A DNA stretch of 54,985 nt, the filler included, from Stramenopiles sp. TOSAG23-2 (Eukaryota): the NCBI GenBank assembly GCA_900128395.1. It is 4 parts of 4 records of this genome, joined end to end, with 100 filler letters (N's around TTAATTAATTAA, not from the genome) between each part and the next. Parts side by side here need not be neighbours in the genome. Positions count along the whole stretch, not along the records: positions 41,360 to 54,985 come from LT649792.1; 3 more parts are not named here. One strand, 5' to 3'. Position 1 is the stretch's first letter. Each line of letters opens with the position of its first letter. Shown one piece after another: positions 45,202 to 53,759 of this stretch. The position numbers and the translations under genes were made by a program. Under the pieces are notes generated by a model. The model searched no databases. It had not been told where the DNA came from and worked only from the letters and a program-made list of their open reading frames with translations.

Positions 45202-48200
45202 TTATACTTTATTTTTTATGGAATCTTTTTTTGATGGATTTTTCTTTGTCAATTCCAACTTGAAAACAGGGTTTGAAACTTCTGTACGACTAATGTTGGT
45301 CTCTTGAGAATTGTTCGTTGTATCTTCTGATTCAGAATTTATGCTTGAGTTTGTTGTGCTTTGAAATGATCGCTGTGATCGCAACTTTCGTATCATTGAA
45401 TCGGTGCTTGGAATGCTTTTATTAATCTTTTTACATGATGAATTGACTACTTTTGCAACTTTTGGAAAGTAATAAAAAATTACTAAAACTGTGGTACTCC
45501 ACCATAGAGCCATTCCAAAAAATAAGTCAATGCTACTGCCATCACCCTCAAACCTTATAAACTGTAAAGATAACAACAATGGAATGGCCTGTGAAAACAT
45601 TATATTATATAAGGAAAATGCAACTGGCTTGCTACTATTAAATTCTTTTATATGGACATTTCGATTGGCCATAGCTAATTTAACGCCATAAAGTAATAAG
45701 AAAGCTTCCAAGCAAGTAATTATTGTTTTAAACCGATCAGTCTCATTAGGGCCTGTATAGACTTCACAATGTGCTCTGTAAATAAATATTTTTTTTCCGT
45801 CCACATCAAGAGTAGAAAATTTAAGCTGCGGTTCACTGGAATTATCCCACTCAACAATTGTCCAAACTATGCAATATATCATAGTAAATGATAAACCTAT
45901 TACCGTTTTATAAACCATGTACCTAGCTTCTCTTGCGCCACGATGCTTACTCATTCTTCTATTAGAAGCCATTAAAAGTTTGGTGATTGTACCTAAAATT
46001 ACAAACAGTGGTACTAGCGCAACAACTATACCCAAATGCAAACAAAACCTAGATGCAATGCAATGAATCGTACCAGGTGTTTTGTTCTTTGAATCATAAC
46101 TAGGTTCAGTCATTAACAAAAGTACATGGATATATATTAATATACAGCCACTCAAAATTACCATTGTATATAATGGTTGATTACGTTTGATTTCTTTATT
46201 TGTTTTTCTATTTTTCCAGACAAGGGTAGCTAATGCAATACAAAATACAATACCTAAAATAGCTAGAATTTGAAATATCAAAAACAAGTAATGAATAAAG
46301 TCAGTTCTCTCATAGAATGCTTCAACGTTAGGTGCTAAATATTTTTCATTCACTCCTTTCATCCATCCTTGGATCATAGTTAGTACATTGCGGGCAGAAA
46401 CTTCTTCTTTTTTGCCATCTTCAAGGTATGTATCCATTTCTATTCGAGCAACTTCGCATACAGCTTGATTTATTAAATATTGCTCCACGCTCTTTATTGG
46501 TTTACCGGAATCCAAAACCTCCTTTTTCATCTTCAAAAATTTCGTAATTATTTCTTCTAACAACTCGTCGTTGATCATAAAATGTTTTAAAAAGTCATAT
46601 GATGGTTTTGATACATTGTCATCATAATATAGAGCTCCTGCTAAATTTTTACCTTCCCTAATCAACAGATTTGATACGACTTTATCTAATGGATCTGCAT
46701 TGTAATCACATGAAGAATCTTTATATTTTATATCTATTATAGTCTTATTTTTTTCGACGTAGCATACACCTTTTATTTCGCCCTTTACCTTGTGTGCTGA
46801 TATTTTGCCCTGTTGCGCTCGGCATTTGGTTGTGCTAGGTGGGAACGCAACGCGTATCATTTCATGACTTTCTTTATTTAATTTTACCTCAAATGGCAGT
46901 ACATCTGGTTTCCACCACCACATAAAAAATGCTTCGTCATTTTCTGCAGATGCATATATTATTTGGTCTATATGTTTTAGTTTATAACCACCTCGTGTTG
47001 AGTTATTTCGACCTTTATATCCTATCGATATATTATTACCATGAAACATAATTTTCGAATATTCTGACCAACCGCACAAATCAATGGTTGTTAAATATCC
47101 AATATCATCATCGGCTACAAAGTATCCCCCATATACTATTTCATTTTTATCATTCCTTTTGTAATAATCGTCTTTATAATCTTTCATGTTAGCTGGTATT
47201 GGACATACACGTTCTACATTATCGACACTGCTACTGTTACTACTACTGTTGTAATAATTTACGCAATAATCATTCCAAGTAATTGGATACTTAAAGATTT
47301 TAGCATTTCGCTTTCTATACTTTTCCGTAAAACCTCTATATGATGCTAAATCGGGATACATGTCCACTAAATAACGTGGAATATAAAGCCCAATTTGACC
47401 TGTAATACCTAAAGGCATGGGTCTCACGTTGGATATATCCGCGGTAATTTCATGGTCTAGAGTTCTCCAAACTTCCATCATTGCATCTCCACAATTATTA
47501 TTCCTTGAATTTTTAGCGTCGTTACACATAACGATAGATTCCAAACTATACGTTTTGCTGATGTCGCGACTATACATTGGTTTATCTAGATAATCTTCAT
47601 AGAAACCTTTTGAGTGTATGATATTTGGATTTTTTGCATTAGGCTCATCATCATAATAATTTGTTGTTGCATCTGACTTTTTATAATTATTATTATCGAA
47701 AACAAATATTGTTGGTAACTTTAATATTTCAACAGCAAATATTTGAGCAAGTTGCCCCGTCAATTGAGTGGACAACCAATTCTGAGATAAAATTTTCAAA
47801 GTATAATTTTTATATATAGACACACTTGTATAATTAGTGCAGTGTTGTGTGTCCTCGGTACTGTCAAGACAAACACGGCATTTTCTGTTATGTTCTTTGT
47901 CATTGCAATTTCTATTTTTTAAGTCCTCTAGTTTTAATGGTAGACCTTCCTTTGCTTTTTCGAGTCTACTTTTGAACTCCAAGTCCGACATATATTCCTG
48001 TCTACTTTTGATCTCCTCATCCGACATATCAGGAGTCTGTGTCATTGCCTTCTCATAAGAGTATCCACTCAAACAACCATATTTACTAAAGGTATTTATA
48101 CACTTTCCATTTTCACCACACTCTGGCTTATAAGTCATTTTAAATGTTGTATTTATGCCAGTAAAAATTTGGCAATCATCATCTTTTTTACAAGGACAAA

Positions 48201-48303
48201 CGTTATTCTCAGTTGGTGCTAAACATGCAGATGTATATAAAGCAAAATATATAAAATTTAAGAAAATAGTATATTTTATTACGTAGCAAGCGTTGAACGC
48301 CAT
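45202..48303 (-). CDS. Class C (GABA-B-like, 7tm_3) GPCR with Cys-rich N-terminus and OpuAC/ProX-like solute-binding ectodomain
   Basis: Signal-like N-terminus and seven hydrophobic helices with class C features (EIKRNQPLYTMVILSG, CIASRFCLHLG, LLLYGVKLAMANRNV...FNSSKPVAFSLYNI). Ectodomain motifs NWLSTQL, DAMMEVW, LGITGQIGLYIPRY and FMWWWKPD. Confidence 0.8.
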   Translation of the reverse strand: MAFNACYVIKYTIFLNFIYFALYTSACLAPTENNVCPCKKDDDCQIFTGINTTFKMTYKPECGENGKCINTFSKYGCLSGYSYEKAMTQTPDMSDEEIKSRQEYMSDLEFKSRLEKAKEGLPLKLEDLKNRNCNDKEHNRKCRVCLDSTEDTQHCTNYTSVSIYKNYTLKILSQNWLSTQLTGQLAQIFAVEILKLPTIFVFDNNNYKKSDATTNYYDDEPNAKNPNIIHSKGFYEDYLDKPMYSRDISKTYSLESIVMCNDAKNSRNNNCGDAMMEVWRTLDHEITADISNVRPMPLGITGQIGLYIPRYLVDMYPDLASYRGFTEKYRKRNAKIFKYPITWNDYCVNYYNSSSNSSSVDNVERVCPIPANMKDYKDDYYKRNDKNEIVYGGYFVADDDIGYLTTIDLCGWSEYSKIMFHGNNISIGYKGRNNSTRGGYKLKHIDQIIYASAENDEAFFMWWWKPDVLPFEVKLNKESHEMIRVAFPPSTTKCRAQQGKISAHKVKGEIKGVCYVEKNKTIIDIKYKDSSCDYNADPLDKVVSNLLIREGKNLAGALYYDDNVSKPSYDFLKHFMINDELLEEIITKFLKMKKEVLDSGKPIKSVEQYLINQAVCEVARIEMDTYLEDGKKEEVSARNVLTMIQGWMKGVNEKYLAPNVEAFYERTDFIHYLFLIFQILAILGIVFCIALATLVWKNRKTNKEIKRNQPLYTMVILSGCILIYIHVLLLMTEPSYDSKNKTPGTIHCIASRFCLHLGIVVALVPLFVILGTITKLLMASNRRMSKHRGAREARYMVYKTVIGLSFTMIYCIVWTIVEWDNSSEPQLKFSTLDVDGKKIFIYRAHCEVYTGPNETDRFKTIITCLEAFLLLYGVKLAMANRNVHIKEFNSSKPVAFSLYNIMFSQAIPLLLSLQFIRFEGDGSSIDLFFGMALWWSTTVLVIFYYFPKVAKVVNSSCKKINKSIPSTDSMIRKLRSQRSFQSTTNSSINSESEDTTNNSQETNISRTEVSNPVFKLELTKKNPSKKDSIKNKV

Positions 48304-48993: not shown

Positions 48994-51900
48994 TTACTTT
49001 GTATCATCAGATACGGTAAAATTCTCAGATCGCCATTGATCATAATAATATACATCGCCTTCATTACTAAAATTAGTATGTAAAAAATTTTCAATATGTC
49101 TCATTGTTTCATCGACACGCAATGCACTTGGTGCCGCCAATAAGTCATGTGCAGATGGCTCCTCGTCGCTTGTACCAATTTTATAATATGAAAATAAATG
49201 TGGGTCTTCTTTCCATACTAAATGTTGTGACAGTGATTCAATTTCATCATTTAGTAATACTTCGTCAGCGGGGGTTGACATTACCAATGTTGGCTTTTTT
49301 AATACTAATTTATCAGCAACCAATTCATTCTGTACTTGTTTCACTGCATTCATCCATCCAGCTGTTACGTGCAAATCTTTCGTATTTTTCAACTCATCTG
49401 TAAAACCATACGTTTTATACAAATTTAATGAATATTCACTTTTTTCACCACCAGTGGAATTCATAATAGTCGATGGATCCAATGCACCAGCTTTCATACC
49501 ATCATCTAATTTATCCACTAAAAATTTATTATACCATGGCAAGTTCCAACTCCAAAAAGGCGAATTGAAAATATAACCATCAATTGCACCTCTCCATGAT
49601 CCATTTGAACTACTACCATCTGCGCCGTACATAGCAGCAACTAAACCACCTGTTGAATGTGCATAACATACAATGTTTTCATAATATTTACCACATCCAA
49701 TATTATTTGTAAGAACAGTTGATTTACCCCTGCCATAAGAAGCAACTGAAAGTGGGGTTGGACGTTTTAAAAAAGAAACTGTTGCATCTATTTCTTCTAA
49801 ATATTCACTAAAATCGTATGAATCATGCCCCAGTAATTCATCTGATATACATGGCGTTACACCGTCTATATCCATTTTAGAACGCCCACAACGCCTTAGA
49901 TCTAAAACAAACAAATCAAACCCAGCATTTAATACCCGATTTAATATATGTACATGAAAAAATGAATCATTTCTACCTGGAATCCACAATAATGCTTTGT
50001 CATTTCCAGGTAATTGTTTCATTGTCAACACAGCTCGTTCATTTTTTAAGCGCTTATTACTATGCAATGGTATCGATAATGATGTTAACCTTGCATTTTC
50101 AATGCTTTGCTGCGTTACACGTTGTGTACCTTCATAAAAGTCCATCGTTTCCTTTATTCGTTTTTCTTTGATTTGCGATATGTATTTTTCTGGATTTTGC
50201 CACCATCCCTCCAATTCAGGCGGTGAATGTTTATCAGCAAATGCACGTAAGTCACTTTGCAACTTACTTCGATCTGCCCGTAAATTATCCACAATGTTCT
50301 TGCTTAGCAATAGGCGCAAAGATCCTTTCATAGTCGTAAATGCAGTAACAAATGGACTTTGGTGTACAAATGTATAGCCAGAAATGGCAAATACCGGCAA
50401 GGTTGCTAAACCACTCATCACAGAGCTTGTATAGAGACCTACGCTTGTTGCAACAATTGGGTAGTATAATAAGATCCCAGCAAGTCCAGCTACTATTCGC
50501 ATAGTTGCCTCGACTGAACGATCGCCATACTCATCTACTCCCATTTTCGTACCAACAATTTGTGCTAATCCTAAGATTGGAGAGTGTAAAATGCCACCTA
50601 ACATCCCTATTGGCTGTTTCAAGAATGTTGTTAATATTTGTGTACGTGCTTTTGTACGCAATATAGTTAGACGCTCATTCAATGGGTCAGAACCTTTTGC
50701 ATACATTGCTACATATTTGTCAGTAACATCAATTTCATTTAATTTTCTGCCATATTCTTCGATTCGTTTATATAAACTTTGAAATTCTGGATCATCTAAA
50801 CGCCTGACAGCAACATTTGCAAACGAACGAGTCAGGTCAGCATATTGGCCTAATGTCAATTGTGCACCATATGGTTTATAAATATGTCGTGCTAAATGCA
50901 TAATATTTATAAAATCCCAATCTTCAGGTGTTGGTTGTATATTTGCTAAACCAAATAATGCCTTCCTCGCTGCATCACGTTGTAACTCTATATTTGGCAT
51001 CTCTTTCACTAATTGTGATGTCCGTGCCAATATCGTATCCGCCTTTGCTTTTCGTACTCGTTTTCTTGCTTCTGCAACTGTTTCATAATGTGCCACACTG
51101 GTAAATGTATATTCGCCAACTTTTATTTGACATTGTTCCTTTCTACGCTCCAGACGTATCATTTGTTCATATTCCTTTAAATTTAATGTATTTTCATCTT
51201 CTCCATCACCAGTAGAAAATTGATTTATCATTTTCTTTGCTTGTTCCGTTGTGACATTAGTATCCAATTTTTCATTTAATAGCTTTGCAAGCTCTTCAGG
51301 TGTTAACATACCATCTTTATCCAAATCATACTCATAAAATGTATTTCTATCAATGCCTTCATCTTTCTTATTACCGATACTTGATATACCTTGTTGTTCA
51401 TACCATTTTTTCTCTTTTCTTAAAACATCATATACTGGTTCTCCCAAACTACGGTGCTTACAAAATTGTGCTAATTCATTTCTCCAATCAGGAACACGAA
51501 CAGTTACTTCATTTAAATGTCTTTCGATTCTATTTGTCATCATTATCTCAGCGTTTTTTTGCGTGTTGCGATCATCGCTACTGTACATGTCCAATAGATT
51601 ATCTGTAACTTCGACTGGGCGTCCAATATCAATTAATACTTTTGCTCGAAACTGTGCACCGGATGGGACAGAATATGTAATACCAATAGGAAATATTGGT
51701 ATTCTCATTTGACCCTTTGATCCTTTGCTAACTTGCAATGCCATGCGTGCAGTTCCTACTTTCAACGCCTTGATTTGTGGAGTCGAATGGCATGTACCTT
51801 CGGGAAATATACATACATTAACACCATCAATTAGCCTTGATGTTACCGTGTCAAACATTTCTTGATTCATTAATTGACGTTCTTCTTTTGGCATTTGTTT

Positions 51901-52206
51901 TTCAGGTGGGAGGTCTGGATCATATGGTTGTGCTACCGGTACACTTTGCATAACTTTTAAAAAAAACGAGACAATTGGTGCTTTGAACAAGCCATATTTT
52001 GCAACGGTACTTATATTTGTATCAGGCAATGCAGTCATAACTGCCATGGGATCTAATAAACCAGACGGGTGGTTACCCGCAAATATTGCCCCATGCTTCA
52101 CATTGATTTTTTGTAAATTTCGCAAGCCTCTCACTTCAATTTCAGATATGTACAAACGTGTCATGAAATGGATGAAGTTTCGTATTATTGGTTTTAAATT
52201 CTGCAT
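48994..52206 (-). CDS. Fusion: glycerol-3-phosphate acyltransferase (Gpt2/Sct1-like) with dsRBD-like/EF-hand insert + alpha/beta-hydrolase
   Basis: Acyltransferase NHPSGLLD (HxxxxD) and IFPEGT; EF-hand DLDKDGMLTPEE; TM block. Hydrolase WIPGRNDSFFH, LDLRRCGRS, AHSTGG nucleophile elbow, FNSPF, DEVL and AHDLL. Confidence 0.85.
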   Translation of the reverse strand: MQNLKPIIRNFIHFMTRLYISEIEVRGLRNLQKINVKHGAIFAGNHPSGLLDPMAVMTALPDTNISTVAKYGLFKAPIVSFFLKVMQSVPVAQPYDPDLPPEKQMPKEERQLMNQEMFDTVTSRLIDGVNVCIFPEGTCHSTPQIKALKVGTARMALQVSKGSKGQMRIPIFPIGITYSVPSGAQFRAKVLIDIGRPVEVTDNLLDMYSSDDRNTQKNAEIMMTNRIERHLNEVTVRVPDWRNELAQFCKHRSLGEPVYDVLRKEKKWYEQQGISSIGNKKDEGIDRNTFYEYDLDKDGMLTPEELAKLLNEKLDTNVTTEQAKKMINQFSTGDGEDENTLNLKEYEQMIRLERRKEQCQIKVGEYTFTSVAHYETVAEARKRVRKAKADTILARTSQLVKEMPNIELQRDAARKALFGLANIQPTPEDWDFINIMHLARHIYKPYGAQLTLGQYADLTRSFANVAVRRLDDPEFQSLYKRIEEYGRKLNEIDVTDKYVAMYAKGSDPLNERLTILRTKARTQILTTFLKQPIGMLGGILHSPILGLAQIVGTKMGVDEYGDRSVEATMRIVAGLAGILLYYPIVATSVGLYTSSVMSGLATLPVFAISGYTFVHQSPFVTAFTTMKGSLRLLLSKNIVDNLRADRSKLQSDLRAFADKHSPPELEGWWQNPEKYISQIKEKRIKETMDFYEGTQRVTQQSIENARLTSLSIPLHSNKRLKNERAVLTMKQLPGNDKALLWIPGRNDSFFHVHILNRVLNAGFDLFVLDLRRCGRSKMDIDGVTPCISDELLGHDSYDFSEYLEEIDATVSFLKRPTPLSVASYGRGKSTVLTNNIGCGKYYENIVCYAHSTGGLVAAMYGADGSSSNGSWRGAIDGYIFNSPFWSWNLPWYNKFLVDKLDDGMKAGALDPSTIMNSTGGEKSEYSLNLYKTYGFTDELKNTKDLHVTAGWMNAVKQVQNELVADKLVLKKPTLVMSTPADEVLLNDEIESLSQHLVWKEDPHLFSYYKIGTSDEEPSAHDLLAAPSALRVDETMRHIENFLHTNFSNEGDVYYYDQWRSENFTVSDDTK

Positions 52207-52871: not shown

Positions 52872-53759
52872 ATGTCTTTGCAATTTAGTGAAAGTTCCAA
52901 ATCAGAACAATCAAATCCATTATTAGTGGGGGAAGTCATCAATAATTCAACAACAAAACCAGGAGAATTTACAATGTCACGTCTCTCAAATCCTCGCCGC
53001 AATGGATTAAAAATCGCAAATGTAAGACAACAAGATGTACCGTTGGTAGCTAAATGTTGTTCATTAATATGTTGTCCTTTAGCGTTTATGGGAACTGCAT
53101 ATACCGTAGATCAACAAACTGAAGCTGCTGTACTTCATTTAGGTGTCTTAACACATATTGAAAGAACCCCAGGCCTTCATTTTGCTTGGCCATGTTTTCG
53201 TGAAGTTAAAACAATATCAACAAAACATCGTACTGTATCATTGCCATCTATGAAAGTTGCTGATCAGTCTGGAGCACCCATTTTAGTCAGTGCAATATTA
53301 AATTATTATGTGGAAGATGCAAAACAAGCAATATTTAATGTAGAAAATTTTAATAGTTATGTTTTAAATAACGCCGAAGCTGTTCTCAAACAAGTTGTTG
53401 GACGTTATTCATATTATCAATTAAAAAGTGAGACTGAACAAATAAACCAAGCCATGTTAGATACAATTACCCCACTAGTCAAAGTCGCGGGTGCAAAAGT
53501 AACATCAATGTTATTAAATGAATTGAATTATGCACCTGAAGTTGCAAGTGGAATGTTAAAAACGCAACAAGCAGGAGCATTGCTTGAAGCACGAACGATT
53601 ATTGTTGAAGGCGCGGTAAAAATTGCTCTTGACGCAGTTAAAATGTTGGAACAATCTGGTTTAAAAATGACGGAAGAAGGCAAATCAAAAATGGTATCAA
53701 ATTTATTAACTGTTAGTGTTAGTGATGTTGATGCTACACCAACCATATCTATGTCATAG
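52872..53759 (+). CDS. SPFH/band 7 domain protein
   Basis: AAVLHLG...PGLHFAWP, KVADQSGAPILVSAILNY, LNYAPEVASGMLKTQQA.ALLEARTIIVEGAV and MVSNLLTV. The Cys cluster CCSLICCP may be palmitoylated. Confidence 0.9.
   Translation: MSLQFSESSKSEQSNPLLVGEVINNSTTKPGEFTMSRLSNPRRNGLKIANVRQQDVPLVAKCCSLICCPLAFMGTAYTVDQQTEAAVLHLGVLTHIERTPGLHFAWPCFREVKTISTKHRTVSLPSMKVADQSGAPILVSAILNYYVEDAKQAIFNVENFNSYVLNNAEAVLKQVVGRYSYYQLKSETEQINQAMLDTITPLVKVAGAKVTSMLLNELNYAPEVASGMLKTQQAGALLEARTIIVEGAVKIALDAVKMLEQSGLKMTEEGKSKMVSNLLTVSVSDVDATPTISMS

Follow-up and report, generated by a model that had tools for sequence, protein, structure and literature searches.

The window examined here, a stretch of 54,985 nucleotides joined from records of Stramenopiles sp. 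TOSAG23-2, encodes in one uninterrupted open reading frame (ORF; 48994..52206, minus strand) a protein of 1070 aa, in which a glycerolipid acyltransferase is interrupted by an insert of predicted dsRBD fold that itself carries an EF-hand pair, followed by a helical and hydrophobic region and an alpha/beta hydrolase. Sequence comparison strongly supports a history in two steps, with the family ancestor having taken up the dsRBD at the PDW junction of the acyltransferase and the clade of the window protein having gained the EF pair later. The nested insertion proposed in a first-pass annotation of this DNA was borne out: all motifs that it had quoted sit within this ORF, and extra residues are found at the PDW junction family-wide.

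Host enzyme and insertion site

The acyltransferase core occupies aa 1-238 (51493..52206; this and all other features of the gene are on the minus strand) and matches Pfam PF01553 at aa 23-176 (E 2.4e-17), with motif I at H46-x5-D52 (52051-52071) and motif III, FPEG, at aa 134-137 (51796-51807). An HX5D motif I, which 23 of 35 family rows have (the remainder being N-terminally incomplete), is given as a fungal-type GPAT feature in the available text of PMC4207751, which also assigns QF and an invariant FPEGGSHD to fGPAT-A. With the fungal-type GPATs as described there (Sct1/Gpt2; fGPAT-A and fGPAT-B), the window protein shares the PF01553 core, HX5D, FPEG, the PDW junction and the helical domain, but it reads HPSGLLD rather than HxNQFxD and FPEGTCHS rather than FPEGGSHD, and it has the dsRBD insert and the hydrolase fusion. 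The earlier label "Gpt2/Sct1-like" hence holds loosely, HX5D speaking for it and the missing QF and FPEGGSHD against it. A genome search found a single full-length copy of the gene. The same genome also has two distant, insert-free acyltransferase paralogues, L002 and L003; the Sct1-like L002, a separate gene, does carry both the QF and the FPEGGSHD signatures.

The insert shows in the spacing of the host enzyme. The distance from FPEG to RxxYxP is 166-349 aa in 30/30 family rows (one row incomplete). Of the 96 relatives outside the family, 95 have 101-127 aa there and one has 148 aa; this count used 126 of 134 sequences, the other 8 being dropped for an absent anchor or too short a sequence. 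In insert-free relatives, PDW continues directly into the next helix, and in family members the host helix picks up again after a second D or DW. The annotation had described VPDW (aa 238-241) and PEDW (aa 427-430) as bracketing the insert where related proteins have a single such motif, which agrees with the one PDW...RRLYxP of insert-free relatives; its counterpart in the window protein is the second DW with the resumed host helix (aa 427-443; 50878..50928). The coordinates annotated for the insert were shifted by one base against the reading frame; in frame, it runs over 50944-51489. The twin DW is not demonstrably a target-site duplication, since the second site is variable (D in 32/35 rows, W in 17/35) and a dsRBD can itself start with DW (2a11). 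In L008, an apparent phase-0 intron (gt...ag; positions 2000-2151), as read from the sequence, lies just past the first DW, where module alpha1 begins.

Fold of the inserted module

In the window protein, the module begins at the first DW with alpha1 and beta1 (aa 240-262; 51421..51489; DWRNEL..EPVYDV at aa 240-261), which were placed by conserved residues and a weak alignment to the alpha1-beta1 part of RNase III dsRBDs. It resumes behind the EF-hand pair with a beta2-beta3 hairpin (aa 355-371; 51094..51144; CQIKVGEYTFTS at aa 359-370) that aligns to the compact modules of relatives, and ends in an alpha2 recognized by conserved residues (aa 406-421; 50944..50991; QRDAARKAL at aa 409-417), in which AAxxAL is present. 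Beta3 and alpha2 are separated by a basic linker of ~34 aa (aa 372-405; 50992..51093) that, according to the alignments, is missing from the compact relatives. This linker and the C-terminal hydrolase are two features beyond those annotated before.

The fold was examined on natural EF-free relatives, and the modeled structure is that of the compact relative L007, not of the window protein. The AlphaFold2 model of L007 (26-sequence alignment; pLDDT 93-98) predicts helices at 41-51 and 91-107 and strands at 58-64, 67-74 and 77-80, giving an alpha-beta-beta-beta-alpha arrangement. When this model was compared with 48,161 chains by VIA-align, the top match was the HYL1 dsRBD (3adg; Z 10.5, rmsd 2.1, 67 aligned), and 45 of the 50 listed rows were a dsRBD or a dsRBD protein; the others, namely three mitoribosome chains, a DHX29 complex and HEN1, carry dsRBD-like domains as well. 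Foldseek likewise placed dsRBDs in the top rows, with a best E of 1e-3 and none lower. At the profile level, four compact modules searched against 177,635 PDB sequences gave 3 matches at E<=10, 3/3 of them dsRBD proteins, and a 12-module profile gave ATP synthase b noise only. An hhalign comparison of 23 modules (of 26 rows) with 15 RNase III dsRBDs reached 88% (E 2.9e-6, 57 columns, score 31.9), whereas 100 column shuffles scored no higher than 16.8 and the reversed profile scored 11.8.

The window protein is connected to this fold through its relatives. Its clade aligns to the compact modules (hhalign 95%, E 1.7e-8) and the compact modules to the RNase III dsRBDs (87%); the direct comparison of the clade with RNase III dsRBDs is weak (6%, E 0.006) and covers alpha1-beta1 only, and a single-sequence AlphaFold2 prediction of the window insert has a pLDDT of 40. 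Conserved positions, in window numbering, are W241 (34/34), L245 (35/35), P257 (31/35) and Y/F259 (32/34) in alpha1-beta1, F/Y368 (33/34) and S370 (31/34) in beta2-beta3, and A412 (30/35), A413 (31/35), R/K414 (35/35), A416 (33/35) and F418 (33/35) in alpha2, the best kept being W241, L245 and the alpha2 end (R/K414, A416 and F418). A dsRBD fold of the family insert is thus supported by the predicted structure, and we infer that the split module of the window protein is one dsRBD unit, from the profile alignment to compact relatives and the conserved core residues. The dsRBD-like fold suggested earlier was thereby recovered, on an EF-free relative, by the model and its Foldseek and VIA-align matches, with the window protein linked by profile alignment.

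Single-sequence searches give fainter signals, and the dsRBD of this enzyme family escapes Pfam. No module reached the cut-off of 23 bits for dsrm (PF00035); the best match had 14 bits and E 0.076 (P0068; the E of 0.076 is also given for L007). In a Pfam scan of 11 single modules, L009 matched DND1_DSRM (E 0.051) and 9/11 had no match to the dsRBD clan; the window insert itself scored 13.3 bits for dsRBD2 (cut-off 25, E 0.092). Whole-protein scans gave no dsRBD-clan match in 13 relatives and one in 13 further relatives (DSRM_DHX29 on P0082, E 0.1). A PDB search with the whole protein returned EF-hand proteins and weak unrelated matches and no dsRBD, and phmmer with P0068 returned one match, unrelated. 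An Atlas search with the L007 module placed dsrm clusters on top (0.86 and 0.85, a lead only), and the P0015 module retrieved only unnamed clusters. An RNase III dsRBD HMM scored 5.8 bits or less across 224 proteins, with the best stretches clustering directly after PDW.

Compared with dsRBDs at large (PF00035; HYL1 3adg, TRBP, RNase III), the module shares the alpha-beta-beta-beta-alpha order, the L..L....l..P.Y start and the AAxxAL helix. It differs in residing inside a lipid enzyme, in falling below the Pfam cut-off, in lacking the alpha1 Glu, GPxH and KKxA, and in an alpha2 that is extended or split by the basic linker. Among the non-subscription papers searched, none was found to describe a glycerolipid acyltransferase with a dsRBD fold in it, nor one that combines a GPAT, double-stranded RNA binding and an EF-hand. 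The component parts are all known already, and EF-hand acyltransferases exist.

Family tree and order of events

Relatives were drawn from searches that returned 16 and 24 sequences, from 31 loci and from the best 150 of 9,366 representatives in a census. In trees built on columns outside the insert, the family forms a single clade (100/99) and the EF clade of the window protein is nested within it (100/100). The module is found family-wide and the EF pair in the beta1-beta2 loop is confined to this one nested clade, in line with the two successive insertions put forward in the first-pass annotation; its proposed search for homologues with none, one or both inserts did find relatives of all three kinds. 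The window protein is 68% identical to P0004, which suggests a MAST-4-like source organism.

The hydrolase domain (aa about 738-1040; 49087..49995) matches Pfam Hydrolase_4 (PF12146; E 2.9e-6) at 27.2 bits, just past the cut-off of 27. With serine aminopeptidase S33 and lysophospholipase-like hydrolases it shares the HSTGG nucleophile motif and a candidate Asp and His, and alignment motifs point to S851, D981 and H1020 as a candidate triad; it differs from these enzymes in being fused behind an acyltransferase, and its NCBIfam PldB score is 17.4 against a cut-off of 362 bits. Hydrophobic segments upstream (aa about 533-614; 50365..50610; Kyte-Doolittle windows 1.5-1.9) are probably membrane-associated. 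P0246, which together with P0095 forms the earliest branch, has the module and neither an EF-hand nor the hydrolase motif. The dsRBD is therefore likely to have joined before the hydrolase, and only likely, because this early placement is moderately supported (80/92), long branches converge at the root and P0246 may be incomplete.

The module has also been lost in part. P0074 (/L010) has no strands left but retains alpha1, or what remains of it, and the last part of alpha2, and this sequence is nested among full modules (99/98); it is a secondary reduction. The family hence presents a natural series, from no insert through module only and module plus hydrolase to forms with EF-hands (three sites in all) and a form that has shed the strands, which opens two questions to testing: the domestication of an RNA-binding fold and the addition of calcium control to an enzyme.

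Source labels assign the P0004 cluster to MAST-4 stramenopiles, P0072 to the bolidophyte Triparma laevis and P0230 to the choanoflagellate Acanthoeca spectabilis. P0230 falls in a clade with stramenopile-labeled members (94/87; taxon labels are few), a placement that may reflect transfer. P0083 combines an unrelated N-terminus with a C-terminal part nearly identical to P0010 and is probably a gene-model chimera. A contig scan of genomes gave 6 loci, in all of which the match is limited to the N-terminal acyltransferase part. Searches of the organism's own, incomplete genome for donors returned no match to dsrm or to the compact module, and distant pairs only for the EF-hands.

RNA binding, calcium and rival explanations

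The available text of PMC11309768 gives the canonical RNA-binding regions of dsRBDs as the alpha1 Glu, GPxH and KKxAK. At region 1, the window protein has Q247, and Glu occupies this alpha1 column in 5 of 35 rows. At region 2, GxxH (not GPxH) occurs in 1/35 modules as opposed to 14/15 RNase III controls, and in the window protein the GPxH loop between beta1 and beta2 is filled by the EF pair. At region 3, KKxA is found near alpha2 in 1/35 (P0095, out of register) as opposed to 15/15 RNase III controls; the window protein has no KKxA and no lysines at this place. The net charge of its module is -1, with compact modules ranging from -4 to +7. Because all three canonical regions are missing, RNA binding by the window module is unlikely as judged from its residues; what had been annotated as uncertain is disfavored instead.

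The EF-hand pair in the beta1-beta2 loop (aa 287-352; 51151..51348) is matched by Pfam EF-hand_7 at aa 288-351 (E 7.1e-7; 29.9 bits, just under the cut-off of 30). Its first hand has a 12-residue loop, DLDKDGMLTPEE (aa 294-305; 51292-51327), with ligands at positions 1, 3, 5, 9 and 12 and Gly at 6, and this canonical pattern occurs once in each of P0001, P0003, P0004 and P0142 (4/4 clade members scored). The second loop (aa about 334-345; 51172-51207; TLNLKEY at aa 340-346) is degenerate and of variable length in the clade, and no second canonical loop was found in the window protein, P0003, P0004 or P0142. EF1 identity is 42-50%, compared with 78-80% for the core of full-length relatives, and the EF region is no better kept than the rest of the insert. 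Ahead of the pair, the clade alignment shows a basic-aromatic motif, RKxKKWYEQQG (aa 263-273; 51388..51420), in the EF-bearing clade only, with 10/11 residues the same as in P0003, P0004 and P0142 each. It is better conserved in the clade than the adjacent EF-hand, and we take it to resemble a calmodulin-target segment.

A canonical EF loop is missing from the majority of the family (22/35 rows), so calcium control is dispensable for the enzyme. Relatives do have EF-hands at two other sites. P0095 (aa about 198-260 and 421-432) carries a different EF pair in the same dsRBD, between beta3 and alpha2 (Pfam E 4e-14; 26% identical to the window pair), and further downstream a single EF loop. Its sister P0246, 63% identical, is without both elements, and an AU test marginally rejected grouping P0095 with the window clade (p 0.043). 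In P0005-P0012 (8/8), a 10-residue insertion ~65-70 aa past RxxYxP, between two host helices, forms a single canonical EF loop with no partner hand evident; EF-hands in general pair with a partner hand. This third-site loop, present in P0005-P0012 and in P0095, requires two changes when mapped to the tree. As many as four independent EF gains are suggested by these data, P0095 being a single sequence and losses being possible, and the use of two other sites suggests repeated recruitment of calcium sensing in the family.

We favor, with moderate confidence, the reading that a domesticated, non-RNA-binding dsRBD carries a calcium sensor that tunes the enzyme. The gene product would be a membrane-associated HX5D acyltransferase fused to a serine hydrolase, with glycerol-3-phosphate, DHAP or a lysolipid as the probable substrate of the acyltransferase. 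As sequence, trees and the predicted fold show, a family ancestor took up the dsRBD between the catalytic core and the helical domain that follows, and the EF-hand pair later entered the beta1-beta2 loop in the clade of the window protein; the hydrolase probably joined after the dsRBD. Having lost its usual RNA binding, the dsRBD may have turned its two helices into enzyme architecture that packs on the enzyme, as the loss of strands and retention of helices in P0074 suggests, and the former RNA-binding face may have become a tolerant mount for additions. Ca2+ at loop 294-305 could tune either the acyltransferase itself or how it is balanced against the hydrolase, in an LPCAT1-like manner, with coupling possibly via the basic-aromatic motif or the basic linker. 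This reading suggests that an RNA-world fold found a second use, as the mount of a calcium control over lipid synthesis; a counterpoint is that no structure shows a sensor at the module tip with a path to the active site. If calcium regulates the protein, Ca2+ signaling would be linked to the turnover of membrane or storage lipids in marine heterotrophic flagellates. LPCAT1 and LPCAT2 are likewise acyltransferases with an EF-hand, and LPCAT1 is inhibited by Ca2+ through it, according to the available texts of PMC3439698 and PMC4280512; the LPCAT1 hand, however, is located in the carboxyl-terminal domain, whereas the window protein belongs to a different acyltransferase group and has its pair nested within a loop of the inserted dsRBD.

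A less probable but serious alternative is that the dsRBD and then the EF pair are passengers tolerated at permissive sites and kept only for folding, so that Ca2+ may bind yet regulates nothing. Consistent with this, identity is 32% in the module as opposed to 56% in the core and 54% in the hydrolase, module length runs from 33 to 217 aa across the family with low-complexity loops, P0074 has dispensed with the strands and P0072 has a shortened alpha1. This genome also has many EF-hand pairs in its long ORFs (11 further matches at E<=0.1), so each single EF gain carries less weight. Passengers would not be expected, however, to keep D294, D298, G299 and E305 of EF1 invariant in the clade alignment amid variable neighbors and motif 263-273 nearly invariant, or to show canonical EF loops at three sites on different branches.

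Doubtful, though with precedents, is a type-B-like dsRBD whose surface serves protein-protein contact (a self-dimer, docking of the hydrolase or another partner), opened or closed by Ca2+. If EF-hands need partners, the single loop of P0005-P0012 would have to find its second hand elsewhere, and protein-binding dsRBDs of this kind (8igd, 4x8w and 5cff) are among the structural matches of the L007 model. As far as the available text of PMC11309768 goes, TRBP-like third dsRBDs serve protein-protein interactions, and type-B domains (the third domains of TRBP, PACT and Loqs, DRB7.2:DRB4 and Staufen dsRBD5) have, like the module, the fold without the full RNA-binding surface; they differ in residing beside type-A domains in RNA-pathway proteins, the window module being in a lipid enzyme. 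Against such a contact, conservation falls on residues of the core or of helix ends, with no conserved exposed sheet face apparent, P0246 has the module without the hydrolase motif, and P0074 does without the sheet.

It is rather improbable that the dsRBD, mounted on a bifunctional acyltransferase-lipase, is a working ligand binder, for RNA or a partner, with a rebuilt basic surface, to which Ca2+ switches were added independently in marine flagellates so that calcium and ligand together set the balance of lipid synthesis and hydrolysis. We consider it more improbable still that the module binds RNA, or another polyanion, with the basic linker replacing KKxA and Ca2+ gating RNA access. The same slim chance applies to the accompanying idea that lipid synthesis is tied to RNA or ribosomes through gating by the EF pair. 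Non-canonical binding retains some probability from a basic E[ST]xxxxRxR-type linker past beta3 in 17/35 family rows, and from lysines clustered two residues away from where SKK canonically sits, in the earliest-branching pair P0095/P0246. On the other side stand the three regions missing from the window protein and the negative charge of its module, and insertions land in regions 2 and 3 themselves.

RNA contigs cover the gene in 4 runs from 4 studies, DNA in the libraries being possible. They bridge the module start (X6, 51390-51716), the start of the EF insert (X11, 51352-51502, and X5, 51294-51449), its end (X6, 50978-51199) and the module end (X5, 50289-51094); the junctions are bridged by separate pieces and the whole insert by none, and no joint skipping the insert is listed among the contigs of these runs. 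An artefact (an intron, an assembly chimera or a chance pattern) can practically be dismissed: each dsRBD sequence signal is weak by itself, but relatives that were assembled independently, and that show 52-63% identity, have the EF pair in frame at the corresponding position, both flanks align cleanly in insert-free and module-only relatives, and the junctions are bridged.

Scaffold gaps in the window lie within 13720-41359 (seven N runs, 451 bases), with none in or near the gene. By eye, the gene order around L005 and L007 includes no neighbor like those of the window gene, which are a class C GPCR-like protein (45202-48303, minus strand; Pfam 7tm_3, E 2e-28) and an SPFH/band 7 protein (52872-53759, plus strand; Pfam, E 8e-21).
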